64,000 bases of DNA from an uncultured Nitrospirales bacterium (GTDB lineage Bacteria; UBA10199; JADGCS01): assembly GCA_964526915.1 (NCBI GenBank), contig CAZGMS010000072.1:7341-71340 (forward strand), in the 5' to 3' direction. This document shows positions 19,090 to 55,394 of this stretch, piece by piece (positions within the stretch are counted from its first letter, which is position 1; every line of letters starts with the position of its first letter). Both the position numbers and the translations under genes were made by a program. A model generated the notes under the pieces. That model searched no databases. It saw only the letters and a program-made list of their open reading frames with translations, and was not told where the DNA came from.

Positions 19090-19129
19090 TTTTTCATCCC
19101 CCTAATGGTTCATCCATCTGTTTTCTTGT

Positions 19130-20005
19130 CTACCCCAGAACAATACTATTTTTTCTTGGATCGTAGCAACATCCCATCCGCAGGCTGACAATGCGCACAC
19201 CGCTTGCCCTTTGTGGCCCAATTTCTACAAATGAATTTAATGCCGTAATGCTACCCCCAATCCCCAGCGGCCCACAAAAAGTATTGTTCAGTGTTGCCGT
19301 AATCAATGCTTCAATCTCGTTTTCGTTTCCAAAAGTCTTGTTTGCCATAGCATCGAGCATGAGGCAAGTCGCTTCATAATGTGTTCTTCCTATCCCAACA
19401 GCAGGAACGCAGGGTGTACATCCAAGCAAACCTACCATTTCTACTGCCCAACCGGCAATTTCCGTGCTGATTCGAGAAGAATCGTGGTGGTGAAATACTC
19501 TATAGGTGCGGGATCGTATTTCCGGCCCCCCTCCAAGCATCATCACAGTCAAACGAAGCTGACTGCCTTTGATTGTTTTCATTCTAATCGGGGCAGATGT
19601 CAACATTCCCGAATCTTCGTAAAGCCCCTTTGTTTGTACGAGCCTTTCCATATCATTGCCACACACAGCCATCGGACGGCCTGGTAAAGCTCGCAAACCT
19701 GCTACAATACCATTATCGACAATTTCTAAAAGTTTTCCAACATTGCCTTCAATGTCAGCCTCATCACCTACCTCAAGCAAAACATGGGGCACCCCTGTAT
19801 CGTTGCATAAAGGTAATTTGTTTTTTTCTGCGACGATCGCATTTTCTAATATCATCTCAAGAATCCACTTCGCTTTCTGCTCTGTTTCCCTCGCAATGGC
19901 ATTCTCATAGGCCAGACGCTGATCATGACGAAAACTTGTGCTCGCTTTTATCAATGCCTCGGCAGACGCTTCTAGAATTTCAGATAGTTTTATTGCCACG
20001 CACAC
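19130..20005 (-). CDS. Fe-S hydro-lyase alpha subunit (class I fumarate hydratase / L(+)-tartrate dehydratase alpha family)
   Basis: 291 aa. CNDTGVP motif (family CQDTG-type cluster ligand region) plus further conserved Cys residues. Its partner beta subunit is immediately downstream. Confidence 0.7.
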   Translation of the reverse strand: MCVAIKLSEILEASAEALIKASTSFRHDQRLAYENAIARETEQKAKWILEMILENAIVAEKNKLPLCNDTGVPHVLLEVGDEADIEGNVGKLLEIVDNGIVAGLRALPGRPMAVCGNDMERLVQTKGLYEDSGMLTSAPIRMKTIKGSQLRLTVMMLGGGPEIRSRTYRVFHHHDSSRISTEIAGWAVEMVGLLGCTPCVPAVGIGRTHYEATCLMLDAMANKTFGNENEIEALITATLNNTFCGPLGIGGSITALNSFVEIGPQRASGVRIVSLRMGCCYDPRKNSIVLG

Positions 20006-20020
20006 CCTTTTTAGTTCTGT

Positions 20021-20551
20021 TCATTTGACATGAAAAATTGATTCCCCGTTGGCCGCGGCTATGATGCCGGGCAAGCCACGAATCGTTAATTCATGCAACG
20101 CTTCCATGCCCTCTTCTTCAAACGCTATCACCCTTTTAGAAATCAATCGACTCTGAAAAAGAGCTGATGTCGGCGGCACAACAATAAAAATGGCCCCATG
20201 TCTGGATATATCTTTGACTGTTTGCTTTTTAAGAACACCTTTTCCGATATGCAACCGAACACCCGCTTCAGACAGAATACCCATCGTTCCTTCGATTTCT
20301 TCTTTATTGCTTGAGGTTGGGCCAAAACCGGCTGGGCTAAAAGCGGCATGCATAAAAGCCGCACCTTCCATGGTAATCGGTAGTTCCGTTATCGTGCCAT
20401 CTTTTATCATTTTAGCAATCTTCGGCAATATGGCATCTCTGGCGGTATAAACCACACCGTGTATTTCCACACGACTACCGACTAGCACATTCGACAAATC
20501 AGTCCTCACAGGTGTTTCAATTTTAAGAAGCAAATTAACACATCCTCTCAT
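20021..20551 (-). CDS. Fe-S hydro-lyase beta subunit (fumarate hydratase C-terminal / TtdB family)
   Basis: 176 aa. GVVYTARDAILPK matches the family G-x-x-YTARDAAH-K motif. Separated from the alpha subunit by a 15-bp gap. Confidence 0.7.
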   Translation of the reverse strand: MRGCVNLLLKIETPVRTDLSNVLVGSRVEIHGVVYTARDAILPKIAKMIKDGTITELPITMEGAAFMHAAFSPAGFGPTSSNKEEIEGTMGILSEAGVRLHIGKGVLKKQTVKDISRHGAIFIVVPPTSALFQSRLISKRVIAFEEEGMEALHELTIRGLPGIIAAANGESIFHVK

Positions 20552-20593
20552 GGCATATTAGGCATCTTGAAAATACAGATTAAAGCACGGCTA

Positions 20594-21736
20594 TTATTTT
20601 AAGATGAGTTTTAAGTAGGTTGCTTCATTTTCAATAACTCCGTATGCTTTTGCCCGACTGATGATTTTTTTCGCCCAGTGTTTGTGTGGGTTTATTTCAT
20701 TCATTTTATTGGCCTTCACACTTTTAACCACACCTCCTGGTGTTTCTAATATTTGTAGGGCATCCTCAAATTCTTCCCTGATCACCGTCTGCATGGCATT
20801 GACATATTTGGCGTGCGAGGGGTGAATGATTGTTTTACCGACAAATCCATTGGCCTTATCAAGAATAACTTCCCTCATCAAGCCATCAACCGCTTCATTT
20901 AAGATCGGACTTCTGGTCAACAAAGAACGATGAATATCATCGGCCAATAAATTATCAAGATTATCCCCTTTGTGCACCAAAAAATACTCCCACACTGGTC
21001 CAGACACCGTGTAGTTATCTTCCTCTCTGCTGAAAAAATTCAACACATCAGACAAACAATCTTTGACTGTCAAGATATCATAAATGGAGTAGTTGATCCC
21101 TCGCCTCACTCCAAACATCGATGAAATATCAGTTCCTCCAATCCTGATATTCAGAACAAGTTTTTTAAAAGGCTCCATCATTGTTCTGATCTGACTCAAC
21201 TCATCAGTTCTCAATTCCTTATACGCTATTGTTTTTCCCTCAAGAATGGGCATGCCATACAAAGAAACTTTTAATTTACTATTCAGAGATTCAAGACAAT
21301 TGAAGTACTCTTGACAATTATGACTACAGAACTTGGGGAACGCAAATCCAGACAAAACGTTAGATTGTTCGCTCGTTAACTTCTCAACAAACCCCTTGAA
21401 TTGCTCTGGATGACGCACGCGCAGAAAGATTAATGGTATTTCATCGTGTGTGATCGCCCCTAAAGCCAAGGCTTCTGCAATTTTGTTCAATTGACTTAAC
21501 ACACTGTTCTCGGCCACTGGCAAGATCATTTCATCAACAGCATCTTCAAAGTCCATGACAATCGATGTTGCCTCAAGCACATCCTTTTTTAATAATTTAT
21601 CAACAATATTTTGCGTGCCCGGCATATAGAGTGTGGCGCCTAGACAATACTGCAACAAATCTTTATCAGTGAATTTGTTAAATTCTATTGGTTCCAAAAA
21701 AAATTGGGTGTTTGGATGATATCTGTGGTGCTTCAT
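20594..21736 (-). CDS. HpcH/HpaI aldolase / citrate lyase beta-subunit (CitE)-like lyase with a C-terminal extension
   Basis: 380 aa. N-terminal ATLYMPGT (cf. CitE SMLFVPG) and DFEDAV (cf. D-L-E-D-A/S-V Mg-binding motif). About 90 aa longer than canonical CitE. Confidence 0.55.
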   Translation of the reverse strand: MKHHRYHPNTQFFLEPIEFNKFTDKDLLQYCLGATLYMPGTQNIVDKLLKKDVLEATSIVMDFEDAVDEMILPVAENSVLSQLNKIAEALALGAITHDEIPLIFLRVRHPEQFKGFVEKLTSEQSNVLSGFAFPKFCSHNCQEYFNCLESLNSKLKVSLYGMPILEGKTIAYKELRTDELSQIRTMMEPFKKLVLNIRIGGTDISSMFGVRRGINYSIYDILTVKDCLSDVLNFFSREEDNYTVSGPVWEYFLVHKGDNLDNLLADDIHRSLLTRSPILNEAVDGLMREVILDKANGFVGKTIIHPSHAKYVNAMQTVIREEFEDALQILETPGGVVKSVKANKMNEINPHKHWAKKIISRAKAYGVIENEATYLKLILK

Positions 21737-21824: not shown

Positions 21825-22901
21825 TCACAATACAGTGCCATATTTCATGGCTCGATACCTCACACAATAAAAATATAGCGAATAACTGATAAGGATAATG
21901 GTGAAAATAATAATGACTATACTGTTACTAAGTGTTTTAATATAATAAAAAGCCAGTGCGGCCAATATGATAGTCTGCAAATAATAAAAAAGTGTTATCG
22001 ACTTCACCTCCCAACCCATCATGTGAAGCAACTGATACGGATGCATCCTGTGCGCCTGATATATTTTATGCCCCTGACACAGCCGCCAAATGACGGTAAA
22101 CAATGTTTCCATTATAAAATTAGCAAATAAAATGGGCGTGATCAAAAAAGGTGTGTGTGATTGATCATAGTTAGCCGCCAAGATGGCAATGGCACCAAAA
22201 GAAAATCCCAAAAAAGTACTGCCCACATCGCCCATAAATATGGTGCCTTTGGGAAAATTGAATATCAAAAAACCTAAAGCAGCGGCCGCCAACATATAAC
22301 TCACATGAAACACAAAACCACTACCCATCATGAACGTAATCAGTGTAAAACCCAGCCCCACCAGCACAGCCGTACCTGCAGCCAAACCATTGATCCCATC
22401 CATAAAGTTAAAGGCGTTTGTGATGCCCACAATCCATAAAATGGTCAGCGGATAACCCCATATTCCCAACTCTACATTTCCGAAATAAGGAATGGTGAGC
22501 TTTTTGATTGTGAGGCCAAAGGCCATCAGTATGATCACGCCAACAAACTGACTGAGGAACTTATAGGCAAAGGCCTTATTAGTGATGTCATCATACAAAC
22601 TGACAACAGCAATCATGAGAGATGATAAAAACAAACCCCAGTATGGCTTGGCGCCCACAAAATTATCATTCTGCAAAACATAGTAGAGCAAAATGCCTAT
22701 GCAATACGATACGACAATGGCAATTCCTCCACTACGAGGTATAGCACCCGTGTGAGAACTTCTTGCACACGCTGTATCCATGATCCTGACATATTTACGG
22801 CAAAGATATGTAAAGCATGCTGACAAAAATACCAGCATGATAAAAAAAGCGGTATTCGAAACATAAAACATGCTATGATTTTTCAAAAGTTCTGTCAGCA
22901 T
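21825..22901 (-). CDS. polyprenyl-phosphate N-acetylhexosamine-1-phosphate transferase (WecA / WbpL / MraY superfamily)
   Basis: 358 aa polytopic membrane protein with the NAFNFMDGINGLAAG motif and the DDxxN-containing loop (VSLYDDITNK). Confidence 0.85.
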   Translation of the reverse strand: MLTELLKNHSMFYVSNTAFFIMLVFLSACFTYLCRKYVRIMDTACARSSHTGAIPRSGGIAIVVSYCIGILLYYVLQNDNFVGAKPYWGLFLSSLMIAVVSLYDDITNKAFAYKFLSQFVGVIILMAFGLTIKKLTIPYFGNVELGIWGYPLTILWIVGITNAFNFMDGINGLAAGTAVLVGLGFTLITFMMGSGFVFHVSYMLAAAALGFLIFNFPKGTIFMGDVGSTFLGFSFGAIAILAANYDQSHTPFLITPILFANFIMETLFTVIWRLCQGHKIYQAHRMHPYQLLHMMGWEVKSITLFYYLQTIILAALAFYYIKTLSNSIVIIIFTIILISYSLYFYCVRYRAMKYGTVL

Positions 22902-25113: not shown

Positions 25114-26225
25114 GGCACGCTCACAAAGAGGTGTTTTAGCACATCAACAATGCGTTCTCCAGACTTGCCATCCCACAAATCAGGAATACGGCCTTTTTTC
25201 CACTGCCCAGCGAGTATCTGATCAACGGCATGGATAATACGAGTGGGATCACTCCCCACAATCTCATTGGTCCCCACAGTCACCGTCACAGGGCGCTCAG
25301 TATTCCCTCTCATGGTGATACAGGGAATCCCCAAAACGGTAGTTTCTTCCTGAACACCACCCGAATCAGTCAATACAAATTTGGCGGCCGCGGTGAGCCT
25401 GATCATCTCATGATACGATACAGGCTCCAACTGGTGAATATTTTTCAATTGCTCCCATTGCGGAGCCAAACCAAATTGGTCAATCATCTTGATCGTTCTG
25501 GGATGAACAGGAAAAACAATTTTTATCCGATTCTGAATGTGAGCAAAAGCCTTTAGCAAGCCTTTTAGTACCATGGCATGATCAACATTAGATGGTCTGT
25601 GAAGTGTCATGAGGCAATACTGGCCTTTTTGAATATGGAGTCGTTCCAAAATATCAGATGTTTGGGCCTGAGGAAAATTTCTGAGCAAGGTGTCAATCAT
25701 GACATTGCCCACAAAATATATTTTGTGAGAAGGAACTCCTTCACGTAGCAAATTGTCTTGAGCTTCCTGTTCCGTTACAAAAAAATAATCACTAATGGCA
25801 TCAGTCACCTTGCGATTGATTTCCTCAGGCATTTCATCATCGTAACTCCTGAGCCCCGCTTCGACATGAGCCACTGGAACAGAGAGCTTCTTGGCTGTAA
25901 TTGCACAGGCCATCGTGGAATTAACATCGCCAACAACAAGCACCAAAGCAGGCTTCTGTTTGAGAAGCATCTCTTCAAAACGAACCATGATGTTTGCTGT
26001 CTGTACAGCGTGCGTGCCGGAGCCCACTTCCAGATGAACATCCGGCTGGGGCAGACCCAACTCCTCAAAGAATCGCCCAGACATTCTCTGATCATAGTGC
26101 TGGCCGGTGTGAACCAACAGTGGAGTCATGCCTGTGACGCAAGCTTTCATGGAGGTCACAAGAGAAGCCACTTTCATAAAATTGGGGCGCGCCCCACAAA
26201 CGATCGCAATTTTTTTTGTTATCAC
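25101..26225 (-). CDS. UDP-N-acetylglucosamine 2-epimerase (WecB / FnlC / NeuC family; hydrolysing vs non-hydrolysing not resolvable)
   Basis: 374 aa. N-terminal KIAIVCGARPNFMKVASLV and internal HVEAGLRS motifs of the Epimerase_2 family. Confidence 0.85.
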   Translation of the reverse strand: MITKKIAIVCGARPNFMKVASLVTSMKACVTGMTPLLVHTGQHYDQRMSGRFFEELGLPQPDVHLEVGSGTHAVQTANIMVRFEEMLLKQKPALVLVVGDVNSTMACAITAKKLSVPVAHVEAGLRSYDDEMPEEINRKVTDAISDYFFVTEQEAQDNLLREGVPSHKIYFVGNVMIDTLLRNFPQAQTSDILERLHIQKGQYCLMTLHRPSNVDHAMVLKGLLKAFAHIQNRIKIVFPVHPRTIKMIDQFGLAPQWEQLKNIHQLEPVSYHEMIRLTAAAKFVLTDSGGVQEETTVLGIPCITMRGNTERPVTVTVGTNEIVGSDPTRIIHAVDQILAGQWKKGRIPDLWDGKSGERIVDVLKHLFVSVPCGV

Positions 26226-27625
26226 ACAACCACACCTTTCAAAATAATGTCGCCTGGCTTCCTAAACACTTTATCATATAACCAGACCAAAGCTGCCGCA
26301 TCCAAGATTAAAATAGCAAAATACGCCGCAAACATATAACGTTGCTCGTAATGCGTGGGTAAATGAATGGCTATTTTATACAAATACAATAACAACAGAA
26401 TTGATATTTGTCGAAACTCCTTCCGATAAAAAATCAAAGCCAACATGACCAATAAAAACATAACAATAACAATCGCTGTAAAACAAACATGAATAAAAGC
26501 CTTAGCCGTAAATGATTCTGATGTTGCAGCATCTAACAACATCATTGATACTAATCTTTTAAGCAAAACTTTTGCATAATATTCCGGGTGCGCCTTAACG
26601 ACTTGCATGGCATCGTCCATCAAGAGATCCGATGACTCCTTGACCCACCGTGGGCCATCATATCCCAGCTCATGTAATCTCTTTTGACCGGCATCATCAG
26701 AGTTTTCAAAACCATAGGAATTTGGATACTCACCCAACCCTTCCCAAAAGCCTTCCCCTGTATTGGACCAATAATCATAATGCCCTGTGCTTTTTTGATA
26801 CAAAATTGAAAACGGAGCACCAAAGAAAACCACAACAATAAGAAACATCGATACTGAATTAGCAAAACTAACAAACAATGTTTTCTTTTGAAGCAATAAA
26901 TAGACAAAATACACACCTGGCAAAAATATGATGAATGGTCTAAACCAACAAAAAAATGCAATGGATACGCCTGACAAAACAACCCACACAAGAGATCTTT
27001 CACTATGAAATATTTTTAATGAGAAATAAGTTGCTGTAATCATTCCCCACAATTCAAAAACATCACGACTAGCCACAGAGGACAGTAAAATAAATGGTAC
27101 AAATAATATATACAAGACTGAAGAAAGGTATGCTATGGATGAACGCATAAAAATAAGTTCAGCGATCAAAAACACAAGCACAGCCATAAATGAATCAAAG
27201 ATAATTTGAATAATCTGCAGTGGCAGAAAACTTTTTGGAAATATTTTCCAGAAGATCCCAAGAACAATTGCATAACCTGGAACATCTGTTAGAAGCGGGA
27301 AGGTATAATCACTGTTGGTTTTATTGAGAATTGCCTCCCTTTGAAAATAATCCACATTGATTCTCTTTTCCTTCATATTCAAAAGATTTTTGTAGGCCTG
27401 AGAATCTGGATCTTTAGGGCTCTTCCAATCTAATTCTCCGCCTGACTTAAAACCAATTCCATCGGCAATATTGCTTGCAATAGTATATTGTTCGCCCATA
27501 CGACCAGAATCGAAATAGAGATCATGAAAGACAAATAAACCAACAACCCTTACCGCAAGAGCTATGAGAAACAATATAAGTAATGTATTTTTCATCGTTC
27601 TATACAAAGAAACCGGAAACTCCAT
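26222..27625 (-). CDS. polytopic membrane protein, candidate GT-C fold glycosyltransferase (ArnT / PMT_2-like)
   Basis: 467 aa, about 10 or more TM helices with a soluble segment after the TM block. A first-loop acidic motif (FHDLYFDSGRMGEQY) resembles the GT-C D/E loop. Supported mainly by context: a GtrB/ArnC-like GT2 lies 2.7 kb upstream in the same arm. Confidence 0.35.
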   Translation of the reverse strand: MEFPVSLYRTMKNTLLILFLIALAVRVVGLFVFHDLYFDSGRMGEQYTIASNIADGIGFKSGGELDWKSPKDPDSQAYKNLLNMKEKRINVDYFQREAILNKTNSDYTFPLLTDVPGYAIVLGIFWKIFPKSFLPLQIIQIIFDSFMAVLVFLIAELIFMRSSIAYLSSVLYILFVPFILLSSVASRDVFELWGMITATYFSLKIFHSERSLVWVVLSGVSIAFFCWFRPFIIFLPGVYFVYLLLQKKTLFVSFANSVSMFLIVVVFFGAPFSILYQKSTGHYDYWSNTGEGFWEGLGEYPNSYGFENSDDAGQKRLHELGYDGPRWVKESSDLLMDDAMQVVKAHPEYYAKVLLKRLVSMMLLDAATSESFTAKAFIHVCFTAIVIVMFLLVMLALIFYRKEFRQISILLLLYLYKIAIHLPTHYEQRYMFAAYFAILILDAAALVWLYDKVFRKPGDIILKGVVV

Positions 27626-28727
27626 TGATCACCTGATCTATAAGGGGATCCAAACCTGCCCATAAAGGAAGTCTTAAAATGCGTTCACTTGTATGTTCTG
27701 TGTTCATCATTGTTCCAAAACACCTGGCATATTTAGACCCATAAGGAGAGCTGTGTAATGGCACATAATGTGATACGGCATTGATACCCATTTCTTTGAG
27801 ATGTGACATGATATCTGATCTTGTTCTAGAATCTTCGAGCAACAAATAATACATATGAGCGTTGTGTACACATCTGGCAGAAATCATTGGCCGTCTCAAA
27901 ACACCTTTCTGTTCTAAAACCAAAAAGGCGTCATGATATCGTTGCCAAAGACACATTCGATTATCAGTTATTTTCTTTGCCTCATCAAGCTGTGCATAAA
28001 GAAATGCCGCCACCATTTCACCTGGTAAAAAGGAAGACCCCAAATCCTGCCATGAATATTTATCAACCTCACCTCTTAAGAACTGCTTTCGATTCGTTCC
28101 CTTCTGCCAAATAATTTCCGCTCTCCGCACAAAACGTTCATCATTCATTAACAATGCACCGCCCTCACCGGAAGAAATATTTTTTGTGTCGTGAAAACTG
28201 AGACATCCCATCTGTCCAATCGTTCCAAGATATTGGTTGTTATATTGAGACATGATAGCCTGTGCGGCATCTTCGATAACCAACAGATGATGTCTTTTCG
28301 CTATGGATGTGATGGTTTCCATTTCACAACCAACGCCCGCATAGTGGACGGGAACGATGGCTTTTGTTTTTGGGGTGATCGCATCCTCTATGATCTTTTC
28401 ATCGATGTTCAAGGTGTCTGACCTGATATCAACAAAGACAGGGACTCCACCACGCAGAACAAATGCATTGGCTGTAGAAACAAATGTGAATGAGGGCATG
28501 ATGATCTCATCACCTTGCTGAATATCGGCTAATAAAGCGGCCATTTCCAACGCGCCCGTGCATGAATGCGTCAGCAGAACCTTTTGACATCCAAGTTTTT
28601 TTTCCAACCATTCATGACATTTTTTTGTGAAGAGACCATCACCAGACAAACGCCGATCCTCTAACACCTTTTGAATATACTTGATTTCATGACCTGTAAT
28701 GAATGGCTTATTGAATGGTATTTTCAT
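27600..28727 (-). CDS. DegT-family aminotransferase, WecE-like (dTDP-4-keto-6-deoxyhexose 4-aminotransferase)
   Basis: Strong resemblance, from my recollection of WecE, over IIMPSFTFVSTANAFVLRGG, GEGGALLMND and DKYSWQDLGSS. RmlA/RmlB lie in the same arm. The track ORF starts at 28766; MKIPFNKP at 28727 is the more plausible start. Confidence 0.75.
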   Translation of the reverse strand: MKIPFNKPFITGHEIKYIQKVLEDRRLSGDGLFTKKCHEWLEKKLGCQKVLLTHSCTGALEMAALLADIQQGDEIIMPSFTFVSTANAFVLRGGVPVFVDIRSDTLNIDEKIIEDAITPKTKAIVPVHYAGVGCEMETITSIAKRHHLLVIEDAAQAIMSQYNNQYLGTIGQMGCLSFHDTKNISSGEGGALLMNDERFVRRAEIIWQKGTNRKQFLRGEVDKYSWQDLGSSFLPGEMVAAFLYAQLDEAKKITDNRMCLWQRYHDAFLVLEQKGVLRRPMISARCVHNAHMYYLLLEDSRTRSDIMSHLKEMGINAVSHYVPLHSSPYGSKYARCFGTMMNTEHTSERILRLPLWAGLDPLIDQVINGVSGFFV

Positions 28728-29505
28728 CATTGATTTTTTCGGCCACACAGACCAGGGAACCTCCAAAGGGGAATGACAAACCGTAAGCGATCATCAACAT
28801 TTCAACATCACAAACCCGTTCGAAGATCCAATTGATCCATCGTGCAATTTTGAATTCAGAAAGAATGTCCTGAGTTGAATTCGATTTTAAACTCTTTTTC
28901 AACCAGATTCTAGAAACAAACATGAACGGCAACAAGAGGGCCATGAAAGACGAAACCCAAACCATTCTGAACCCGCTTTTTTTTAGTTTGATGGTAAGTT
29001 CTTCACAAGTGTACCTTCGTTTATGGCAAGCAACCTCATCCTGAGAACTCCACAACCAAGCATGTTGCGGCACAGTCAGAATAAGCCCCCCACCCTTTTT
29101 CAGACCCTGATGAAATTGATTCAAGACACACTCATCTTCCAGAACATGTTCCAGAACATCAAACGCCCCAATAACATCATATTCTTCCCTATACGGCATT
29201 TGCCGCGCGTCCATTTGGAACAGTGACGCATTTTTGAGTCTCTTCTTTGCAAAGCTCAAACCCTCAGAAAACAAATCGCTCCCTGAAATCTGAGTCTCTG
29301 GAAATGACTTTTCGATGGCCGACAAAACAAAGCCAGTTCCACAACCCACCTCAAGAAAAGATTTCATCTGTGGGAAAAATTTTTTAAGAGCCCACAAAAT
29401 CAGGCGGTTTCTTGAACAGAACCAGAAGTTCCGAGATTCTAGTTTCTGGATTTGCCAAAAATAGTCACTATCAAAACCTTGTGAAAGATTAACTGCGCCT
29501 ATCAT
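28708..29505 (-). CDS. class I SAM-dependent methyltransferase
   Basis: 265 aa. Motif I FLEVGCGTGFV and motif II region DVIGAFDVLEHV. Confidence 0.65.
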   Translation of the reverse strand: MIGAVNLSQGFDSDYFWQIQKLESRNFWFCSRNRLILWALKKFFPQMKSFLEVGCGTGFVLSAIEKSFPETQISGSDLFSEGLSFAKKRLKNASLFQMDARQMPYREEYDVIGAFDVLEHVLEDECVLNQFHQGLKKGGGLILTVPQHAWLWSSQDEVACHKRRYTCEELTIKLKKSGFRMVWVSSFMALLLPFMFVSRIWLKKSLKSNSTQDILSEFKIARWINWIFERVCDVEMLMIAYGLSFPFGGSLVCVAEKINDENTIQ

Positions 29506-29523
29506 AAAAAATGTCGAAACGAA

Positions 29524-30321
29524 TTATTGCTTTTCGAAAACAAACAATTTCTGAGTACCATAATCACCCACAGAGGGCATTTGTGCAAACCAGCGATTGA
29601 TTTCCATATTGGGATTGGCAACAAGTTGCTCCAGTTCTGCGCATTTCGCCAATATTGGTTTGATCACTCTAGTACCAACAAAATAAGTGCTGGAAAAATT
29701 TTCTATTTTTTTCAATTTCAAACACGCGGGCAAATGCTTCAGTAGCTCGTTTTCATCAAGATACGTGTTAAAAGCAGGCATTGAAATGGCCTCTAACCCC
29801 CATTCAGCACGGAAACAGTTCAATTTATTCCACCCCTGCTTTGTGGCTTCAGATAGCAAAAGCAAACCTCCGGGCATCAACACCCTTGCGCATTCCTCAA
29901 GTGCTTTCACCTGTTTATTAAGTTCAAGCAGATTAATTAATACCCTAACAACAAAAACCTGATCATATGAGTTATCACATTCTTTTAATTGCGTAATGTC
30001 ACCAACATTAAAAGAAAGTCTTTCTTGTAAACCAGGGTTAAGGGTAGCAACTCTTTTGTTGGCTTCTTCAATCATTTTTGGAATATAATCAATGCCCTTT
30101 ATTACTACCTTTTTTTTCATGGCCACAGAAACTGCTGTGTATCCATTTGCACAGCCTGCATCCAATATCTTGGCACCATCCTTTGTATATTTTAGAAGTT
30201 CCCTGATCTCAATTTCAATAGCCTCCCGATCAGACCATGACACCGATGGCTCTTGGCCATACATATGGGCCTGTTGATTCCAATAATCATAAACCTGTTC
30301 TGCATTAAACTTTTCTTTCAT
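29524..30321 (-). CDS. class I SAM-dependent methyltransferase
   Basis: 265 aa. Motif I ILDAGCANGYT and the downstream acidic loop VIKGIDY. Confidence 0.65.
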   Translation of the reverse strand: MKEKFNAEQVYDYWNQQAHMYGQEPSVSWSDREAIEIEIRELLKYTKDGAKILDAGCANGYTAVSVAMKKKVVIKGIDYIPKMIEEANKRVATLNPGLQERLSFNVGDITQLKECDNSYDQVFVVRVLINLLELNKQVKALEECARVLMPGGLLLLSEATKQGWNKLNCFRAEWGLEAISMPAFNTYLDENELLKHLPACLKLKKIENFSSTYFVGTRVIKPILAKCAELEQLVANPNMEINRWFAQMPSVGDYGTQKLFVFEKQ

Positions 30322-31256
30322 GAATCACCTCTTTGAATTATTCTCATATCTCCCCTGACAACATAAGATGGTTTGCCCATTGTCTTAAAATGAACACGGG
30401 CCAAATACTCACCTATGATACCTAAGGAAAATAATTGCGCCCCAGAAAAAATGGCGATAATTGAAGCTAAGAATGTAAAACCATGCACAGAACTCCCTCG
30501 AATCAAATAGCTAATCAAAATATAACTCAAAATACAGATGCCAAATATTGTAAAAACAAATCCTATCAGACTCGCAATTTGCAACGGAACAACACTATAA
30601 CCAGTTGCCATATTTAACGAGTACGTTACCAACTTCAAAAAAGTGTATTGTGATTTCCCAAATGCCCTTTTTGAATGTTGCACATTCACACTAGAAAATC
30701 TGTTCGTCCCCCACGTTAACAATACATCAATTGACACAAATGGACTGTAATAATTGATAAATGCTTCTAGAATTTCCCTTCTGAAGGCACGAAATGCACT
30801 CACTTTTCTCGCCACATCGTATCCCATCACACTCTGTAAAGTTATGCGAGTAATCTGAGAAGCCAATTTTCTCCATATGTTCTGACTGACTTTTTGGGAC
30901 GTCCCATACACCACATCATAATTTTTGTTCAACGCATGCAATAAACACGGTATCTCTTCAGGTGGGTGTTGCAAATCATCATCCATGGTCACTATAATTT
31001 CATATTGGGCCTGTCTGATACCACAAAGTACAGCGTTGTGCTGACCATAATTTCTTCTCAATTGGATTGCCTTGACCTTGGGATCAAACAGAGCAATCTC
31101 AGAAATGATTTTCCACGAATCATCCGTTCCACAATCTTCAACCAAAATGATTTCATAGTTATCGGCCATCGAAGCCAATTGACAACTCAAACGTTCATAT
31201 AGTGCCCGAATACTCCCCGCACAATTGTATGCCGGTATCACAACTGAAATGCTCAT
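30318..31256 (-). CDS. GT2 polyprenyl-phosphate glycosyltransferase (GtrB / ArnC / DPM1-like)
   Basis: GT-A DxD region (ISVVIPAYN ... ILVEDCGTDDS ... TMDDDLQHPPEEIP) followed by two C-terminal TM helices, the hallmark of the Und-P-sugar-forming GtrB/ArnC class. Start moved to MSISVV (31256). Confidence 0.75.
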   Translation of the reverse strand: MSISVVIPAYNCAGSIRALYERLSCQLASMADNYEIILVEDCGTDDSWKIISEIALFDPKVKAIQLRRNYGQHNAVLCGIRQAQYEIIVTMDDDLQHPPEEIPCLLHALNKNYDVVYGTSQKVSQNIWRKLASQITRITLQSVMGYDVARKVSAFRAFRREILEAFINYYSPFVSIDVLLTWGTNRFSSVNVQHSKRAFGKSQYTFLKLVTYSLNMATGYSVVPLQIASLIGFVFTIFGICILSYILISYLIRGSSVHGFTFLASIIAIFSGAQLFSLGIIGEYLARVHFKTMGKPSYVVRGDMRIIQRGDS

Positions 31257-31266
31257 GTGATGATCT

Positions 31267-32340
31267 TTACCCTCTATTGTACTGCTTGTCATAAAACTCC
31301 AAATATTTTAGATTTCGAACATCATCAGTCCATTTTTTGTGTTCGTGGTACCAACGAACTAATGCGGAAATTTCATTCTCAAAGAGTCGCCTTGGCTTCC
31401 AAAACAACTCTTTTCGAAGCTTTGAGCTGTCCAGAGCATACCGTCTATCATGCCCTGGACGATCAGCGACGTACCGCATGAGTTTTTGTGATGTGCCCAG
31501 AGCTCTTCCCATCAATCGGTCCACGACATCACAAATCGTTGTCACGATATGAATATTACTCCTCTCTGTCTCTCCGGAAATCGCATATGTTTCACCTATC
31601 TTTCCTTGTTCTAAAATGGCCTGCAAAGCCTCACAGTGATCGAGGACATGAATCCAATCACGTACGTAAAGTCCGTCACCATAAACAGGCAGTTCTTTGT
31701 CTTCAAAAGCATTTAAGATCATCAATGGAATCAGTTTCTCTGGAAATTGCCAAGGGCCATAATTGTTCGAACAATTACTGATTATCACTGGCAAGCCATA
31801 GGTCCTGTGCCAAGCCCGCGCCAGATGGTCAGAAGCAGCCTTTGATGCAGAATATGGGCTATTGGGTTTGTAAGGTGAATTTTCGTTAAACGGTGGTGAT
31901 GTAAGATCCAGAGCACCAAAGACTTCATCTGTCGAAACATGCAAAAACAACTTGTCGTCAGAATCTACCCAGAGCTTTTGTGCAGATTCGAGCAACGTGA
32001 ACGTACCCTCAATATTTGTTTTTATGAACGGAGTCGCACCAAGAATGGAGCGATCAACGTGACTTTCGGCCGCAAAATGAACGATCGTGTCAATTTCGTA
32101 TTTAGATAAGATATCGCGAATGTTTGCACCATCACAAATATCGATTTTTTCAAAAAAGTACCTTTTGTCAGCAAATTCTGCATGGACATCTTTCAAATTT
32201 TCAAGATTCCCTGCGTACGTCAGATTGTCAACATTGACAACAAGACCCCGAAAATCCGCCTTCTTGAGAAGAGAACGAATAAAATTGGAGCCGATGAACC
32301 CCGCGCCTCCAGTCACCATGATGTTTTTTAGTTTTCTCAT
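31267..32340 (-). CDS. rmlB: dTDP-glucose 4,6-dehydratase
   Basis: 357 aa. [14 protein letters not shown] Rossmann motif, the [10 protein letters not shown] catalytic motif and RmlB-like length. Adjacent to rmlA with a 4-bp overlap. Confidence 0.9.
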
Positions 32341-33206
32341 GTATTTTCCAAAACCCTCAATAGATATTCACCGTAACCAGATTTTAACAATGGCTGCGCA
32401 AGTTGCCTGAGTTGCTTGGCAGAAATGAATCCCATTCTGTAGGCGATTTCTTCTATGCAGGCAATTTTCAGACCCTGTCGATCTTCAATAGTTTTTATAA
32501 ACATCGCTGCATCGGCCAAAGAAGCATGAGTGCCCGTATCTAACCAGGCAAAACCTCGCCCCAACATGCGCACATTCAGTTTGCCTTGGGCCAAATAGGC
32601 AGTATTGACGTCTGTGATTTCCAGTTCCCCCCGAGGAGAAGGCTTGATTGTTTTTGCAATTTTAGCGGCCACATTGTCATAAAAATACAATCCCACAACG
32701 GCATAATTTGATTTGGGTTGCTCCGGCTTTTCCTGCAAAGAAATGGCTTTCATATTTTTGTCAAATTCAACTACTCCATAGTTCTGAGGATTGTTGACAT
32801 AATAGCCAAATATTGTTGCGCCGTTCACGTTCACTGAAACATTTTTCAGCAATCCCTGAAGCCCATCGCTGTAAAATATGTTATCTCCCAAAATCAGGCA
32901 AACAGAATCACCTGCAATAAAATTTTCACCCAAAATAAGAGCCTCCGCCAAACCACGCGGCTGTTCTTGAACTTTGTAGTTAAAAGAAAGTCCCAATTTA
33001 CTGCCGTCACCAAAAAGCATCTTAAATCGGGGAAGATCTTCTGGTGTGCTGATGATGAGAATTTCACGAATGCCAGCAAGCATAAGTGTGGAAAGAGGGT
33101 AATAGATGAGCGGTTTGTCGTACACCGGTAACAGCTGTTTACACGCTACTTGCGTTATTGGATACAACCTGGTTCCAGAGCCACCTGCTAAGATAATGCC
33201 TTTCAT
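32337..33206 (-). CDS. rmlA: glucose-1-phosphate thymidylyltransferase
   Basis: 289 aa. [18 protein letters not shown] and the LGDNIF motif. Canonical RmlA. Confidence 0.9.
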
Positions 33207-34816
33207 AAATTTTCTCCTCTATATGAAACCTCATACTCAAGCACATCACGAAACTGATATTGTAAAACTTGATTCTTAATTTTTTTTCCAAATTCAGGAC
33301 AATACCAGTTCTGAAGGAACTTCGGAGCACACAGAGAACGGATACAAACCCTCACGCCCTTATAAAAAATATTCACCTCGCTGTCAGCAATAGTAATCTG
33401 AGCCTCGGGCACAGCATGTAGGTATGAGGCGCAACAATATTGGTTAGCTGAAATAACAGCATCTCTAATGACAAGCGCATTTTCATTCATAAGGATCCTT
33501 CTTGTTACCAATGGTTTTCCCAAAAGGTAACAGTACCCCGTATGCGCCGCCTCAATCATAACCGAAGAATTTTCTTCTACAATAGAAGTTTCCAAAGGAT
33601 AACCTCTTCGCCCCACCCTGTGGGCCGCCCATATCTCTGCTTGTTCCTGGTCATCAACAGTCACCGTGTTATGAGCAGAAGTTGATCGGCAATACTGCCG
33701 CATGGCTGATGGTAAATATTCATAGTTGCCACTGTCAACGATCACAGGGACACCATCAATCCACAAACAAAAAGAAAGCATATCACAATGGGCATGACCA
33801 GGCTGATGATCAGGACCAATTTTTCCCACATCTTGAATCAGCGTAAACCTACCTTTTTTGACGACAACATAACCCGAATCCTTTAGCCACGTCACTTCAC
33901 CATCTTCCTCCGGGCAATGCCACCCCAATAGATCCTGTCCATATTCAAACAGGTCATCCGCCTGAGGGGCACCCTCATACCCTGCATCCCCAAACAGAGC
34001 GAATTTTCCATCAACACTCATGTGCCACAACCAATTCAAACCCTTATGTGCCACATCAATCAACTTGCCATAAACGTTTTGCGAAAGGGGACGGTTGCGG
34101 GTCAAATTGAGGATATCAAGAATGCGTTCCAGCAAAATGGCATGATACATTGGCGACAATTCATAATGCCCGCCATCAGCCAAAAACTGTGCATCGATTT
34201 CTTTGACCAACTGATCATAAATAATTTGTTGTTGTGATGTTTTGCAACAGACGTGGCTCACCAAATACAAAGCGAAAAGATTTTCCAATAAGTGATTGCC
34301 CAAAAGATGGTACTCTCGTCGTGCATAAAGAACGGATGCCTGCTGTGCCAGCGACAACCGTATCTTGGCAGAGTCTGAGAGTCGCCCTTGAGCCAACAAC
34401 TTGATCCATGTGACCATACGGAGTGAGATGGGATAAGCCTCCCAGCCATTACCCTTAAATGGAGAGTTGTCATCAATCCATTTGTTTACCCAATCGTCAA
34501 CGGGACAATCGTCCTCCAGTAACCAATCCTGATAGTGCAAACGATAACTCCAGAGCTTGTCATTTTTTACAAAATCCCAATCACGACCCACCAAAGTATT
34601 TTGTTTGTTGTTGAAAAGAAATGCTCCACTGCCAAGATAATGTTTGCGATTAGCCACTGGGAAAGACAACTCCGGTTTTAGAGAACACGATGAAATAATA
34701 AATATCTTCTTTGGACATAATGGCATCACAGCATAATATAGCCTGTAAAATATTTGAGATGCTTTCAAATGTTTCAGTGTTCTAAAATATCTGCTCATGT
34801 AACCAAAACAATTCAT
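33203..34816 (-). CDS. heparinase II/III-like family protein
   Basis: 537 aa. Recognised from the central and C-terminal region ([11 protein letters not shown] ... [11 protein letters not shown] ... HAHCDMLSF), which is typical of the heparinase II/III-like proteins recurrently annotated in EPS / O-antigen clusters. Confidence 0.55.
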
Positions 34817-36966
34817 TGTGTTATTAGTAAAGTTTCTCTGGTTTTGATGGCTTCACTTACCAAAAAAGTCGCCTCTGTTGTGACAAAGATTTCATCAAGA
34901 GGGATAGGGTGTTGGTGCTTGTTGATCACAGCAGAGAAAAAAGCCAAAAACTCCTCCTGAAACCCCTTGCTTTGTTTGCCTTTCAGTTTTTTTCGGCCCA
35001 ATTTCCCAAAACATTCTGTACTCACAAAATCCTTCATTAAACACACAGACTCATCCACAAATATCTCGCCCTGTTCTTTGGGATGGTCACGAGATCCAAA
35101 CGATGTGTAAATAAAATTAGCCAGAGAACCATCTGAATACTCAATATTGATCGAAACATTGTCGGCGGCCTGTCGCTCTGCATTATCACCACCAACAGAG
35201 CAAGCTTGCACTGTCCGCGGCATAGCAGACAAAATATAACTGACAAAATCAATAAAATGACAAACTTCACCAATGATACGCCCTCCCCCCTTAATGGGAT
35301 CATGAACCCAGGAGTCATAAGGAATGTGCCCCGCATTGATGCGATAATTTACCACCGCGGGCGATGTTTTTTTCGCCAAATAGTCTCTCAAAAGCTTGGC
35401 ATGTGGCGAAAAACGCCTGTTAAACCCTACAGTCAATATTCCAGAGTGAATTTGAACAGCTTGTTTGATGGCTTCCAATTCGTCCCTGTTCAACGCAAGG
35501 GGTTTTTCTACAAAAACATTTTTTCCCGCCTCTAGAGCCTTTACAACCAATCCGGCATGAGAATCATGACGGGTCGCAATCACAACGGTATTGATTCGTG
35601 GGTCAGCAAAAAGTTCGGCAGAATCCGTCGTGACGTACTCAAATCCTGTTTTTTTTGCGACTGCCGTGATATCAATTCCTGTTGTGGCACAAAGACATCT
35701 GAGTGAAATGTGATTTTGTTTTTGCAAAGCAGGCAACAACACAGCTTTTGCAAAATTGCCCATGCCAATCATACCCACGACACAATCGGTTACCTGATGG
35801 TTCTGTCCACAAATCACTTTGCGTTCTGGGACTCTCGTCGTTCCGTCAGATTTGCCATAACCAATCACAATACCCAAATACTCACTTTTTTCCCTGCCCA
35901 ACAACAAATCGTAGGCCTTGAGTCCTTCGGCAATATCATACTCATGTGTGATCATCTTGGAAGGAGTCACATGGCCATCGGCAATCAAATCCAAAAAGAA
36001 CTCAATGTTTCGTTGTTCAGTCCAACGCACATAGCCATAAGGATAATCATGCCCCTTTTCTTCATAATTGGTATCATAGCGTCCGGGCCCGTAAGACATG
36101 CTCAGTTTGAAATCCAGTTCCTTTTTGTAAAACACATCCCTGGGTATGTTCATTCCAACCATGCCCGTCACCACCACTTTGCCCTTATGACGCGCAATCT
36201 GGCCTGCCAGCTCAACAGGCTCATTGGAATTCGTTGCCGCTGTGATGAGAACGCCATCAACACCATTTCCCTTTGAAAAAGCATCGCATGTGGCCACAAG
36301 ATTGTCCTTAACCACAGAATCAGCCCCAAGCTCTTGCGCCAATGAACAGCGTCGTGCATCAGGGTCAAAACCCACCACTTTGGCACCACTGGCTTTCAAA
36401 ATTTGTACAGCAAAAAGCCCAAGCAAACCCAATCCCATCACACAAACAGTTTCACCTACCCTCACATCACATTGCCTGACACCCTGCAGGGCAATCGCAC
36501 CCACCGTTGCACAGGACGCATCCCTAAAAGAAACCTTGTCGGGAATTTTGACCAGCAGATTTTTTGGTACATAATTGAACTCCGCATGGTTCGCATAACC
36601 TGCCCCTGCGCAGGCCACACGATCACCATTCACCAACCCCTTGACCCCTTGTCCAACCTCCACCACCACACCAGCACACGAATAGCCCAAAGGAATAGGC
36701 TGATCGAGTTTGGCCTGTACCTTTTCCCAGGTTTCAAACAATCCCTCAGTCTTAATTTTTTGAATCACTTTTTTGACCTGATCAGGCATGGCACAGGCCT
36801 TGCCCAATAAATTTTTCTGGGCAAACGACACCAACATTTTTTCGGTACCTGATGAAATAAACGAATGATGTGTTTCAACCACAACGCCTTCCGGTTTGAG
36901 TATGGGTACAGGCACGTCCGCCAACCAGATTTCTCCTGTTTTGAATGACTGAATAATTTGTTTCAT
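34813..36966 (-). CDS. bi-domain oxidoreductase (N-terminal zinc-type MDR alcohol dehydrogenase + C-terminal Gfo/Idh/MocA NAD(P)-binding domain)
   Basis: N-terminal half is MDR-like (GYSCAGVVVEVG ... VCVMGLGLLGLFAVQILKASGAKVVG). C-terminal half has the Gfo/Idh/MocA Rossmann (VGMIGMGNFAKAVLLPAL ... EKPLAL). Start moved to MKQIIQ at 36966 to avoid a 52-bp overlap. Confidence 0.7.
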   Translation of the reverse strand: MKQIIQSFKTGEIWLADVPVPILKPEGVVVETHHSFISSGTEKMLVSFAQKNLLGKACAMPDQVKKVIQKIKTEGLFETWEKVQAKLDQPIPLGYSCAGVVVEVGQGVKGLVNGDRVACAGAGYANHAEFNYVPKNLLVKIPDKVSFRDASCATVGAIALQGVRQCDVRVGETVCVMGLGLLGLFAVQILKASGAKVVGFDPDARRCSLAQELGADSVVKDNLVATCDAFSKGNGVDGVLITAATNSNEPVELAGQIARHKGKVVVTGMVGMNIPRDVFYKKELDFKLSMSYGPGRYDTNYEEKGHDYPYGYVRWTEQRNIEFFLDLIADGHVTPSKMITHEYDIAEGLKAYDLLLGREKSEYLGIVIGYGKSDGTTRVPERKVICGQNHQVTDCVVGMIGMGNFAKAVLLPALQKQNHISLRCLCATTGIDITAVAKKTGFEYVTTDSAELFADPRINTVVIATRHDSHAGLVVKALEAGKNVFVEKPLALNRDELEAIKQAVQIHSGILTVGFNRRFSPHAKLLRDYLAKKTSPAVVNYRINAGHIPYDSWVHDPIKGGGRIIGEVCHFIDFVSYILSAMPRTVQACSVGGDNAERQAADNVSINIEYSDGSLANFIYTSFGSRDHPKEQGEIFVDESVCLMKDFVSTECFGKLGRKKLKGKQSKGFQEEFLAFFSAVINKHQHPIPLDEIFVTTEATFLVSEAIKTRETLLITQ

Positions 36967-36968
36967 AG

Positions 36969-38132
36969 TCACGATTTCCTTGTCATTACAGGTTGTACAA
37001 ACGACAAACAATCCACCCACCCCTGAACATAAGTGTGAATGTTGTATCTGTTATTAATGATATCCTGAGCATGGCTTTTCAGACGTTGTTTGTACGGCTG
37101 ATCCTCACACATTTTTTTCAAATAACCACACAGGCGTTCTTCATTCAGGTCTTCGTCAAGAACGCCATTATTTTTATTGATCAGATCAACCTCACACCCA
37201 TCTCCCGCCGTTGCAATGACCGGTACCCCATGTAGCAATGCGTCAGATATGGCCAATCCTCCCAATCCAGGCAAAACCATTACATCGGCCTTGAAAAAAT
37301 ATTGTGAAACCCCATCCCTCTGTTCTCCAACAAATTGAATATTCCTGATGTTCCATTCACGCGCCAAAGAGCGTAACCTGGCATCGTCCTCTCCCTTGCC
37401 AACAATCAACAAGCACACTTCTTGAGACACAAATTTTTCCAGTTCCGCAAAGGCCTTCAACAAAACATCCACTTTTTTCTCTTTCGTAAGAACCCCAACA
37501 TACAACACCACAAAATCAAACCGAGAATGAATGTCTCTGTAAAGAAGGGAACGGTCAAAACAAGCCATATCCTTGAGTCGTTGCTCGGTATCCACAACAT
37601 TCAACGCCACAAAGATTTTATGGGAATCAATACCAAGGCGTTCATAATACGCTTTGCCCACAGAACTGTAAGTCAAACAGGCCTCTGAACGACGCTCTAA
37701 AAAGTGAATGATCGGATCCATGACTCTACGATGCCATGATTTTTTGCGCTTGCTGATTTCACCCAGACTCCACTGAACAACTTTGCGTCTGAACAGCCAA
37801 GCATAAAATTGGGCTTGCATGCCATTGAGAAAATTGGAGGCCCCCTTTACAACAACCACATCGGGTGAGAACCTGAGAAGTTCAATAAACACAAACGGAC
37901 TGAATGACGAGTAACCTTTTCCATTTGATGTGCTGATCCGAATGGGTATTGAAAACATTTCTTTTGATGCAAAGCTATGCGATTTTTTTGAATTAACAAG
38001 CTTAGTGCCTTTCACATCACAGCCATGAAATACTTTGATGTGCAAACTTTCAACCTGACTCAAGCGTTCGTAAACTGAGACCCGGTAATCTTGAATGACA
38101 CGAGGCAATATGGCAACACGCATTTTTGTCAT
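36969..38132 (-). CDS. glycosyltransferase, GT4 family
   Basis: 387 aa. C-terminal GT4 motif region (GLGGLAISDALLHGVPVIATAGDG). Confidence 0.7.
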   Translation of the reverse strand: MTKMRVAILPRVIQDYRVSVYERLSQVESLHIKVFHGCDVKGTKLVNSKKSHSFASKEMFSIPIRISTSNGKGYSSFSPFVFIELLRFSPDVVVVKGASNFLNGMQAQFYAWLFRRKVVQWSLGEISKRKKSWHRRVMDPIIHFLERRSEACLTYSSVGKAYYERLGIDSHKIFVALNVVDTEQRLKDMACFDRSLLYRDIHSRFDFVVLYVGVLTKEKKVDVLLKAFAELEKFVSQEVCLLIVGKGEDDARLRSLAREWNIRNIQFVGEQRDGVSQYFFKADVMVLPGLGGLAISDALLHGVPVIATAGDGCEVDLINKNNGVLDEDLNEERLCGYLKKMCEDQPYKQRLKSHAQDIINNRYNIHTYVQGWVDCLSFVQPVMTRKS

Positions 38133-39124
38133 GCAGACACTATCCTTTTAACGTCAGAAAAAGATAATGTCTTTGTTTCCAAAAGCAGGGTTTTTAACGC
38201 CTGATGAGTCTTTGCTGTCCACAACTTGGGATGATGCACCCACACTTGAAATAACCGTTTTTTTTGTCTGCCTTTTTTGAGTTGTTTCATGACCAAATCA
38301 ACACTAGCCAAATCAAGGGTAGATGACCTCAATTCAGACAATAGTAATCGTAAAATTTGTTTTGCCAACGGCTTGGGCTTACGCAATCCCTGACCATCAC
38401 CACAACGAGCGCTCCTGCGCATTTGGAAATAATTTTTTAACAAGGTCCTTCCTGAAATCTTCACCGAAGTCATGGGTACTTCAAAAAACTTACCCAGTTC
38501 TTGTGGCAAACACGGATCATTTTCAAAACGCCAGTAATCTTTTTCCTGCGGTGCTTTTGTAAAATCATATGCTGCTTGCTCGTTATCATTGTTTGCAATC
38601 CCTGGCCGCACACTAAAATCATAGTGCAAACCCTGTGATAACATGTGATTCTTCAGTTCTTGAAACGGCTGAACACACCAGCCACCAGCCCTGAAGGCCT
38701 GCACTTTGTATGCTGGACAAACTTGCTGGACAATCTCTTCAATCATCTCCTTGCCACTTGCAATCAAAGCACCTCTCTCGCGCTCACCCAAGGATTGTAA
38801 CCGGTATCTCTCGTGAGTCTTGAATGTCCACTCGTTACCATTTAGCGGTACAGCATCAAGCCATTGTGGATGCAAATGCAAACCAAAATCATGGCCCGCT
38901 TTTGCCATCTCAATGATTTGTGCCCTGACTTTTTCAAAATCAGGGTGTCGTTGTGCAACAAGATGCAAAAGGTAGCTGGCATCAATAAAGAAGATGCCTG
39001 TCGCATTGTGTTCTTTCAATATCTGTAAAATAGCAGATGTCGGTTCAAGGAGACATTTCTGTGCTGTCCCGCTATGAGCACCCAAAAAAAGCTCATAATC
39101 AAATGTGAGAACAATCTGATTCAT
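38129..39124 (-). CDS. polysaccharide deacetylase family protein (CE4-like, TFDYE subtype)
   Basis: 331 aa. N-terminal LTFDYE motif and His motif GHDFGLHLHP. Confidence 0.5.
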   Translation of the reverse strand: MNQIVLTFDYELFLGAHSGTAQKCLLEPTSAILQILKEHNATGIFFIDASYLLHLVAQRHPDFEKVRAQIIEMAKAGHDFGLHLHPQWLDAVPLNGNEWTFKTHERYRLQSLGERERGALIASGKEMIEEIVQQVCPAYKVQAFRAGGWCVQPFQELKNHMLSQGLHYDFSVRPGIANNDNEQAAYDFTKAPQEKDYWRFENDPCLPQELGKFFEVPMTSVKISGRTLLKNYFQMRRSARCGDGQGLRKPKPLAKQILRLLLSELRSSTLDLASVDLVMKQLKKGRQKKRLFQVWVHHPKLWTAKTHQALKTLLLETKTLSFSDVKRIVSA

Positions 39125-55393: not shown

Positions 55394-55394
55394 T

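Follow-up and report, generated by a model that had tools for sequence, protein, structure and literature searches.

The 64,000-nucleotide stretch considered here (the window; contig CAZGMS010000072.1 of an uncultured Nitrospirales bacterium) is a single minus-strand array of polysaccharide genes throughout. We describe the interval at positions 26222–33206, for which a sequence-only reading had proposed an undecaprenyl-phosphate carrier arm decorating a glycan, or lipid A or core, with a possibly N-methylated 4-amino-4,6-dideoxyhexose. The interval contains exactly seven tightly packed open reading frames (ORFs), all on the minus strand; read from 33206 to 26222, six of the seven junctions overlap by 4–59 nt and the remaining one is an 18-nt gap. 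In this order the genes encode the glucose-1-phosphate thymidylyltransferase RmlA (32337–33206), the dTDP-glucose 4,6-dehydratase RmlB (31267–32340), a family 2 glycosyltransferase (GT2) of the polyprenyl-phosphate type that includes ArnC, GtrB and DPMS (30318–31292; PF00535, 1.4e-32), two class-I S-adenosylmethionine (SAM) methyltransferases designated MT-A (29524–30321) and MT-B (28708–29505), an orthologue of the dTDP-4-keto-6-deoxyglucose 4-aminotransferase WecE (27600–28766), and a 467-aa membrane protein (26222–27625). The GT2, MT-A and MT-B genes are therefore placed between those of RmlB and WecE, with the membrane protein gene after WecE and the 18-nt gap between MT-A and MT-B. The ORF coordinates and family models confirm the gene content and boundaries given previously, and the earlier reading is supported as a whole; its testable elements held, except for a specific comparison of the methyltransferases with TylM1 and DesVI.

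RmlA and RmlB score above the cut-offs of their equivalog models (TIGR01207, 476 bits against 361, with PF00483 at 6.6e-72; TIGR01181, 449 bits against 365), bearing out the proposal that they would generate dTDP-4-keto-6-deoxyglucose. The aminotransferase, described earlier as WecE-like, is likewise identified at the equivalog level (NF008687, 595 bits against 375; TIGR02379, 575 bits) and matches Escherichia coli WecE (4piw) at 458 bits with 55% identity over 369 residues, whereas the match to ArnB is only 158 bits. Translation probably starts at Met13 (nt 28730), 36 nt inside the ORF, and other gene callers predict a protein of 376–382 aa. Because of the 55% identity to the E. coli enzyme, the product is most likely dTDP-4-amino-4,6-dideoxy-D-galactose (the Fuc4N sugar). 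This RmlA is the only one in the window, which contains no second RmlB either, and no RmlC was found in it, such that no recognisable consumer of the keto-sugar other than WecE is present there. A second rmlBACD set guessed to lie at 60.6–64 kb was rejected, as Pfam instead gave NeuB, a GNAT, a GT2 and an RmlD-like reductase.

The GT2, which by alignment with homologues possibly starts at Met13 (nt 31256; 36 nt inside the ORF), has full-length alignments to three ArnC structures (1.8e-51 alone and 2.3e-69 as a subfamily profile) and to GtrB (4.7e-37); residues 14–316 are collinear with ArnC 9–314 and residues 13–313 with GtrB 26–327. Two hydrophobic helices are present at the C-terminus (residues 242–260 and 275–293). 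The D-x-D-L-Q motif is DDDLQH (residues 104–109) and aligns with DADLQN of ArnC (residues 100–105). All 15 subfamily members compared keep D104, D106 and Q108. For ArnC, the catalytic base is proposed to be the first Asp of this motif; the metal is bound by the third residue and by the Gln (PMC12690121). The ArnC side chains that contact UDP (D48, N77, R205 and S210) are kept in the window GT2 and are invariant in the subfamily, and R137 is retained together with the nucleotide contacts. In contrast, the Arg that has been proposed to hold the head group of undecaprenyl phosphate in ArnC (R128; PMC12690121) is replaced by Ser in the window GT2 (residue 132) and by Pro in most of the WecE-coupled subfamily. 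The full-length alignments, the DDDLQH motif and the two C-terminal transmembrane helices agree with the GtrB/ArnC architecture suggested earlier, and the score against the ArnC equivalog NF007986 (207 bits) is below the cut-off of 529 bits. On these comparisons the protein is predicted to be a polyprenyl-phosphate glycosyltransferase, but not ArnC proper.

Linkage to WecE and the amine-modifier slot

Relatives of the GT2 number in the thousands, the closest being ~60% identical, and are found in Chloroflexota, Omnitrophota and many metagenomes; the subfamily is ~60% identical across phyla and is coupled to WecE. A metagenome scan with the GT2 alignment returned 80 loci with GT2s 53–63% identical to that of the window, 52 of which have enough flanking DNA to be informative. 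A locus was counted as linked when a WecE homologue (identity 44% or higher) lay no more than 5 kb from the GT2, and by this measure 47 of the 52 are linked; the GT2 and WecE genes are immediate neighbours in no fewer than 11 loci. RmlA and/or RmlB homologues (40–59% identical) adjoin the cassette in four loci (L041, L069, L085 and L106), and together these observations strongly support the link between the amino-sugar genes and the GT2 that had been proposed from the window alone.

Two loci reproduce the gene order of the window. L026 contains the GT2 (61% identical), MT-A (50%), MT-B (48%) and WecE (56%), and L029 has GT2, MT-A, MT-B and WecE followed by a 252-aa ORF, a PMT_2-like GT-C and a MOP-family flippase. 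The arrangement is not a matter of chance, since the same order recurs at 48–61% amino acid identity in these unrelated metagenomic contigs. Two further long contigs follow the same logic: a Chloroflexota locus (L027) has a PMT_2/TMEM260-like GT-C and then GT2, GNAT and WecE, and in L028 large unannotated proteins lie on either side of GT2, WecE and a methyltransferase.

Where one or more genes separate the GT2 from WecE, the 40 intervening ORFs were tallied. The most frequent single class is that of WecD-like GNATs (16 ORFs), whose best NCBIfam match is the dTDP-Fuc4N acyltransferase, at a score below its cut-off. The others include three MT-A, four MT-B and three other methyltransferases, three hexapeptide acetyltransferases, two GtrA-like small membrane proteins, and one each of an ArnA-like formyltransferase and an ArnE/F-like protein, with the remainder unclassified or probably not real genes. 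Both the linkage to WecE and the amine modifiers in the intervening slot are as would be expected if the GT2 used the N-modified product of WecE. ArnC itself accepts only N-formylated 4-amino-4-deoxy-L-arabinose (Ara4N) (PMC12690121).

MT-A is a soluble protein (Pfam Methyltransf_25/31/11) with homologues 50–53% identical directly after the GT2 in L026, L029, L040, L047 and L084, a slot that is held elsewhere by the WecD-like GNAT. The two are never found together, with a GNAT in 0 of 6 loci containing MT-A compared with 43 of the other 74 (Fisher p = 0.008, a value weakened by contig truncation). MT-A is probably an amine modifier that replaces the N-acyltransferase, a role favoured because of the shared slot and the mutual exclusion. 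That it carries out N-methylation specifically is a tentative assignment, to which we give somewhat less than an even chance. Its best PDB matches are generic (RebM, TleD and phosphoethanolamine N-methyltransferases).

MT-B (Pfam Methyltransf_23/11) has a distinctive conserved C-terminal region and represents a separate full-length family with the motifs HWWF, LExGCGTG, DVLEH and H-RRY. Its members accompany WecE-coupled GT2s whether or not a GNAT is present (one is found in 11 of 20 loci), and they also occur in Acidobacteriota next to distant, unrelated GT2/GT-C pairs lacking a nearby aminotransferase. Because of these latter occurrences MT-B is probably not amine-specific; a role as a general accessory in modules of this kind is more likely, for instance as an O-methyltransferase or in modification of the lipid-linked sugar. 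The segment at residues 179–197 has a hydropathy of 1.79, which is borderline for a membrane anchor and may correspond to an internal helix. The closest MT-B homologues (L026 9855–10724, L029 1942–2808 and L032 3280–4158) have an N-terminal zinc-ribbon-like extension of ~35 residues (CxxC ... CPSC) that is absent from the window MT-B, and the 18-nt gap after MT-A is too small to contain it.

Comparison of the two methyltransferases with the N,N-dimethyltransferases TylM1 and DesVI, whose substrates are the 3-amino sugars of macrolides, gives no specific support to the likeness proposed previously, as the matches are no better than those to dozens of unrelated methyltransferases. MT-B matches DesVI weakly (5.9e-6) in the SAM-binding core, and the MT-B family profile matches TylM1 and DesVI at ~45 bits over core positions 50–159 only, ranking them below more than 20 unrelated methyltransferases. 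The MT-A profile has no match to either at 1e-6.

The membrane protein

An exhaustive HMMER search identified 496 relatives of the 467-aa membrane protein among 1.84 billion representative proteins, the best full-length one being 40% identical; word-indexed homologue searches gave two matches each. A single-sequence AlphaFold model was unusable (predicted local distance difference test score, pLDDT, 43.7), whereas a model built with a 30-homologue alignment has a pLDDT of 90.9 and a predicted TM-score of 0.90. All of the Foldseek matches to PDB structures with E < 0.09 are GT-C enzymes or a GT-C-like subunit of the glycosylphosphatidylinositol transamidase. They include AglB (6e-5, TM-score 0.53), STT3, PglB, Pmt4, ArnT, DPY19, ALG9/12/3, AftB and PimE, and neither WaaL nor Wzy is among the 50 matches listed. 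The only Pfam match above cut-off is PMT_2 (PF13231, 31.3 bits against 26.1); PF02366 is far below its own cut-off, and the scan gave no match to the Wzy_C/O-antigen ligase domain PF04932. By its predicted structure the protein has a GT-C fold and is not a Wzy or WaaL, in agreement with the earlier assignment; a polymerase or ligase identity, named beforehand as the outcome that would overturn it, is seen neither in Pfam nor in the listed Foldseek matches.

The protein consists almost entirely of membrane helices and does not have the large soluble periplasmic domains of protein O-mannosyltransferases (PMTs) and oligosaccharyltransferases. Within an (I/L)xDxPGYA motif at the end of the long first extracytoplasmic loop, following the first transmembrane helix, D114 is invariant in an alignment of the 12 closest relatives, as are Q140, R187, W227/R229, P271, W294/G296/G298 and D310 among others. 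D114 is kept in many but not all of the 30 relatives in the alignment used for modelling, and is a candidate for the acidic residue conserved in this loop of GT-C enzymes.

Relatives of this GT-C adjoin polyprenyl-phosphate-type GT2s in polysaccharide loci, including L020, L021 and Acidobacteriota loci. In L020 and L021 the neighbouring GT2s are ~28% identical to that of the window and methyltransferases are also present, and in L024 the relative is next to a dehydratase, an LPG_synthase_TM protein, a DegT aminotransferase and a 277-aa GT2 weakly similar to the window GT2. L025 has a MurJ-like flippase beside it. The linkage is not universal, since the closest genome match (L004, Chitinispirillaceae) sits among housekeeping genes with a distant GT2 5 kb away. 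The GT-C partner is evidently modular, a widespread donor cassette being joined in the window to a rare acceptor-specific transferase. Three-component glycosylation systems are known to be modular, and the GT-C pairing of the window fits this pattern (PMC11127046).

Two 702-aa GT-C relatives (P0008, and P0002 at L019 10001–12109) have a class-I methyltransferase domain fused at the C-terminus; that of P0008 was tested as a possible MT-B-like domain and is not detectably so, and the fused copy in L019 stands alone with no GT2 nearby. In L020 (5657–12086) a GT2 and a pair of methyltransferases are flanked by two clear GT-C paralogues, and perhaps a third, with an ABC exporter after them, and a single lipid-linked donor may serve several acceptor-specific transferases there.

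A proposed arm for extracytoplasmic glycosylation

It is reasonably probable, in our view, that these seven genes together make up an Arn/Gtr-like arm through which a dTDP-derived 4-amino-4,6-dideoxyhexose is added outside the cytoplasm. RmlA and RmlB, from their equivalog assignments, would supply dTDP-4-keto-6-deoxyglucose, and the WecE orthologue would aminate it at C4 to give dTDP-4-amino-4,6-dideoxyhexose, most likely the Fuc4N form. The amine would then be modified before transfer, most likely by MT-A to give an N-methyl or N,N-dimethyl sugar. We infer this step because ArnA formylates UDP-Ara4N ahead of ArnC action and because the sister cassettes carry WecD-like acetyltransferases. The gene linkage suggests that this is the donor from which the GT2, acting on the inner side of the membrane, would load the sugar onto undecaprenyl phosphate. 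MT-B could, more speculatively, methylate the sugar or the lipid-linked sugar further. A flippase would carry the lipid-linked sugar outward and the GT-C would move it to an acceptor which, from the genomic context, is probably the polysaccharide of the surrounding locus. The only visible candidate for the flippase, and a weak one, is a Wzx/MOP-family protein at 49115–50425 (minus strand; PF01943, 59.9 bits), the second such gene of the window and 16 kb upstream in the operon; it is put forward because a MOP/MatE protein follows the GT-C in L029 and because three-component systems for pentofuranoses use a MATE flippase (PMC11127046).

The arm resembles several known systems without corresponding to any of them. 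As in the Arn pathway for addition of L-Ara4N to lipid A, a DegT-family 4-aminotransferase gene adjoins that of an ArnC-type GT2, an amine-modifying step falls between the two in pathway logic, and the final transferase is a GT-C. However, the sugar of the window is derived from dTDP-glucose via RmlA, RmlB and WecE rather than from UDP-glucuronic acid, the aminotransferase is a WecE and not an ArnB, and the GT-C is not ArnT. The window contains no formyltransferase and has no deformylase or ArnE/F adjacent, with two methyltransferases in their place. The Gtr-type systems (GtrA, GtrB and Gtr*; GacI/J/L; CsbB/YfhO; and the GT136 pentofuranose systems) share the combination of a polyprenyl-phosphate glycosyltransferase and a compact polytopic GT-C within a polysaccharide locus, and also the concept of decoration after assembly and outside of the cytoplasm (PMC11127046). 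They differ in that the window donor is dTDP-derived and made by dedicated genes of the module, rather than being UDP-Glc, UDP-GlcNAc or phosphoribosyl pyrophosphate (PRPP), and in that the window arm lacks GtrA and has methyltransferases embedded in it.

The Fuc4NAc branch of enterobacterial common antigen (ECA; RmlA/RmlB, WecE, WecD and WecF) uses the same dTDP-Fuc4N route through a WecE orthologue, and the WecD-like acetyltransferases of the sister cassettes have a counterpart there. In ECA synthesis WecF adds the sugar to a lipid-pyrophosphate intermediate in the cytoplasm, whereas the WecE of the window is coupled to a polyprenyl-phosphate GT2 and a GT-C, implying a monophosphate-linked monosaccharide donor used outside of the cytoplasm; WecD is also replaced by methyltransferases. 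TylM1 and DesVI resemble MT-A and MT-B in being class-I SAM methyltransferases encoded beside a dTDP-amino-sugar aminotransferase, but the sequence similarity is confined to the Rossmann core. The window arm is thus likely to be a variant of Arn/Gtr-type extracytoplasmic glycosylation with a new donor class. No description of an undecaprenyl-phosphate-linked 4-amino-4,6-dideoxyhexose, or of a coupling between WecE and an ArnC-like enzyme, was found in the literature searched, which is weak evidence as most subscription journals lie outside of it.

Several observations weigh against the arm as proposed. Five of the 52 informative loci have no close WecE homologue within 5 kb by the threshold used, although one of these (L032) does carry a WecE homologue, truncated where the contig stops. 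The window is the single instance in which this GT-C family is paired with the GT2–WecE donor cassette, as hidden Markov model searches place no member of the family in any of the 80 GT2–WecE loci. There is no flippase gene in or next to the arm, and no GtrA- or ArnE/F-like ORF fits any intergenic gap of the window. Neither methyltransferase is specifically similar to known sugar N-methyltransferases, and the MT-B family also lives apart from aminotransferases. The stereochemistry at C4 is not certain from sequence, since the WecE family also includes viosamine-forming enzymes, and the steps that go past family assignment are drawn from gene linkage. Finally, we know of no polyprenyl-phosphate GT2 that uses a dTDP-sugar, and a GT2 with such a donor is both the main risk of the proposal and its main interest.

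This last point is also the strength of an alternative in which two functions are interleaved, with RmlA, RmlB and WecE, with or without the methyltransferases, feeding a cytoplasmic repeat-unit glycosyltransferase comparable to WecF of ECA synthesis, while the GT2 and GT-C decorate the glycan with a common UDP-derived sugar such as glucose or GlcNAc. To our knowledge all characterised ArnC/GtrB-type enzymes use UDP- or GDP-sugars, the residues of the GT2 that contact the nucleotide are the same as in ArnC, several GT4/GT1 enzymes of the window could take a dTDP-sugar, and loci without any aminotransferase also contain pairs of a GT-C relative and a GT2. The use of UDP-sugars by GtrB-type enzymes has been described (PMC11127046). 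We nevertheless regard such interleaving as unlikely, as 47 of the 52 informative loci tie the GT2 subfamily to WecE, with the two genes often abutting or having nothing but an amine modifier between them, and in many of these neighbourhoods ECA-like synthesis is not otherwise indicated; a pairing so tight and phylogenetically broad is hard to explain without a shared substrate.

Two further alternatives keep the biosynthesis and change the acceptor. Modification of lipid A or core in the manner of ArnT, with the charge altered by an amine or a permanently cationic methylated amine, is suggested by the parallel with the logic of arnBCADTEF, by the ArnA-like formyltransferase in one sister locus and the ArnE/F-like protein in another, by the presence of ArnT among the structural matches (5f15, E = 2e-3), and by the expectation that a methylated amine would stay cationic. 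We think it quite unlikely, since the ArnT match is weaker than those to oligosaccharyltransferases (TM-score 0.39 against about 0.5) and PF02366 falls short of its cut-off; moreover the GT-C gene lies inside a polysaccharide locus and its relatives are in loci with Wzx, Asn-synthase and GT4 genes, and most sister cassettes N-acetylate the amine and so remove its charge. Alternatively, the GT-C could be a PMT/TMEM260-like protein O-glycosyltransferase that moves the lipid-linked sugar onto surface or S-layer proteins. PMT_2 is its only Pfam match, Pmt4 and oligosaccharyltransferases are among its best structural matches, and the GT-Cs beside sister cassettes match TMEM260-like and PMT_2 proteins. 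This seems very unlikely given the absence of large soluble periplasmic domains from the 467-aa protein and a genomic context of polysaccharide assembly, and PMT_2 is a broad family that also includes ArnT-like and glycan-directed enzymes.

Extension of the proposed arm beyond the window is an evenly balanced proposition. In this form a widespread pathway across many phyla would have a subfamily of ArnC-like GT2s, the first such family to use dTDP-sugars, loading an N-modified dTDP-derived 4-amino-4,6-dideoxyhexose onto undecaprenyl phosphate for diverse GT-Cs that act outside of the cytoplasm. The N-modification would be acetyl, formyl or, in the window, methyl, the window being a rare N-methyl form with a rare GT-C family. 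The interchangeable acetyl, formyl and methyl modifiers suggest a general rule that such GT2s need a capped amine, as ArnC does. The lipid-monophosphate donors known to us carry Glc, GlcNAc, Gal, Man, GalA, Ara4N, GalN/GlcN and pentofuranoses, all from UDP- or GDP-sugars or PRPP, and a dTDP-derived 6-deoxy-4-amino sugar would, if confirmed, be a new donor class for periplasmic decoration. It would also explain a very common unannotated pair of ArnC-like GT2 and WecE in soil, peat and sediment bacteria, in which the GT2 is now mislabelled "Ara4FN transferase" by automatic pipelines. A methylated and still cationic surface sugar could have consequences for charge, for recognition by phages and for resistance to antimicrobial peptides.

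Other genes of the window

Adjoining the arm at 33203–37020 are genes for a heparinase II/III-like protein and a 735-aa ADH/GFO-IDH-MocA fusion, both of which recur near GT-C relatives across phyla (L005–L018, L021 and L025). The fusion is 43–45% identical in Acidobacteriota, and in L021 the heparinase-like gene is directly before the GT-C. Two B12-binding radical SAM proteins and two radical SAM/SPASM proteins are encoded at 54458–60594, and the same types are found beside GT-C relatives in L024 and L025, which points to radical chemistry on the glycan, C-methylation being one possibility.

The window contains two Wzx-type flippases (11869–13338, and that at 49115–50425 discussed above), a Wzz, and two initiating transferases, one PglC-like (Bac_transf; 6410–7042) and one WecA-like (21825–22901). 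The segments at 3419–13338 and 21825–50425 may represent two assembly lines or a single composite one. Between them on the minus strand (13513–21736) is a run of organic-acid enzymes, unusual substituents of an amino sugar being one possible output: an ATP-grasp protein, a thiamine pyrophosphate enzyme, an MmgE/PrpD protein, an aldo-keto reductase, the alpha and beta subunits of a class-I fumarase-type hydratase, a C-C bond lyase, and a 296-aa protein without assignment. The run may make an acyl group for this purpose.

A 331-aa protein encoded 5 kb from the arm (38129–39124) has a weak match to the polysaccharide deacetylase family PF01522 (24.9 bits), which we take to be the family of ArnD, and from this similarity it could be a de-modifying enzyme.

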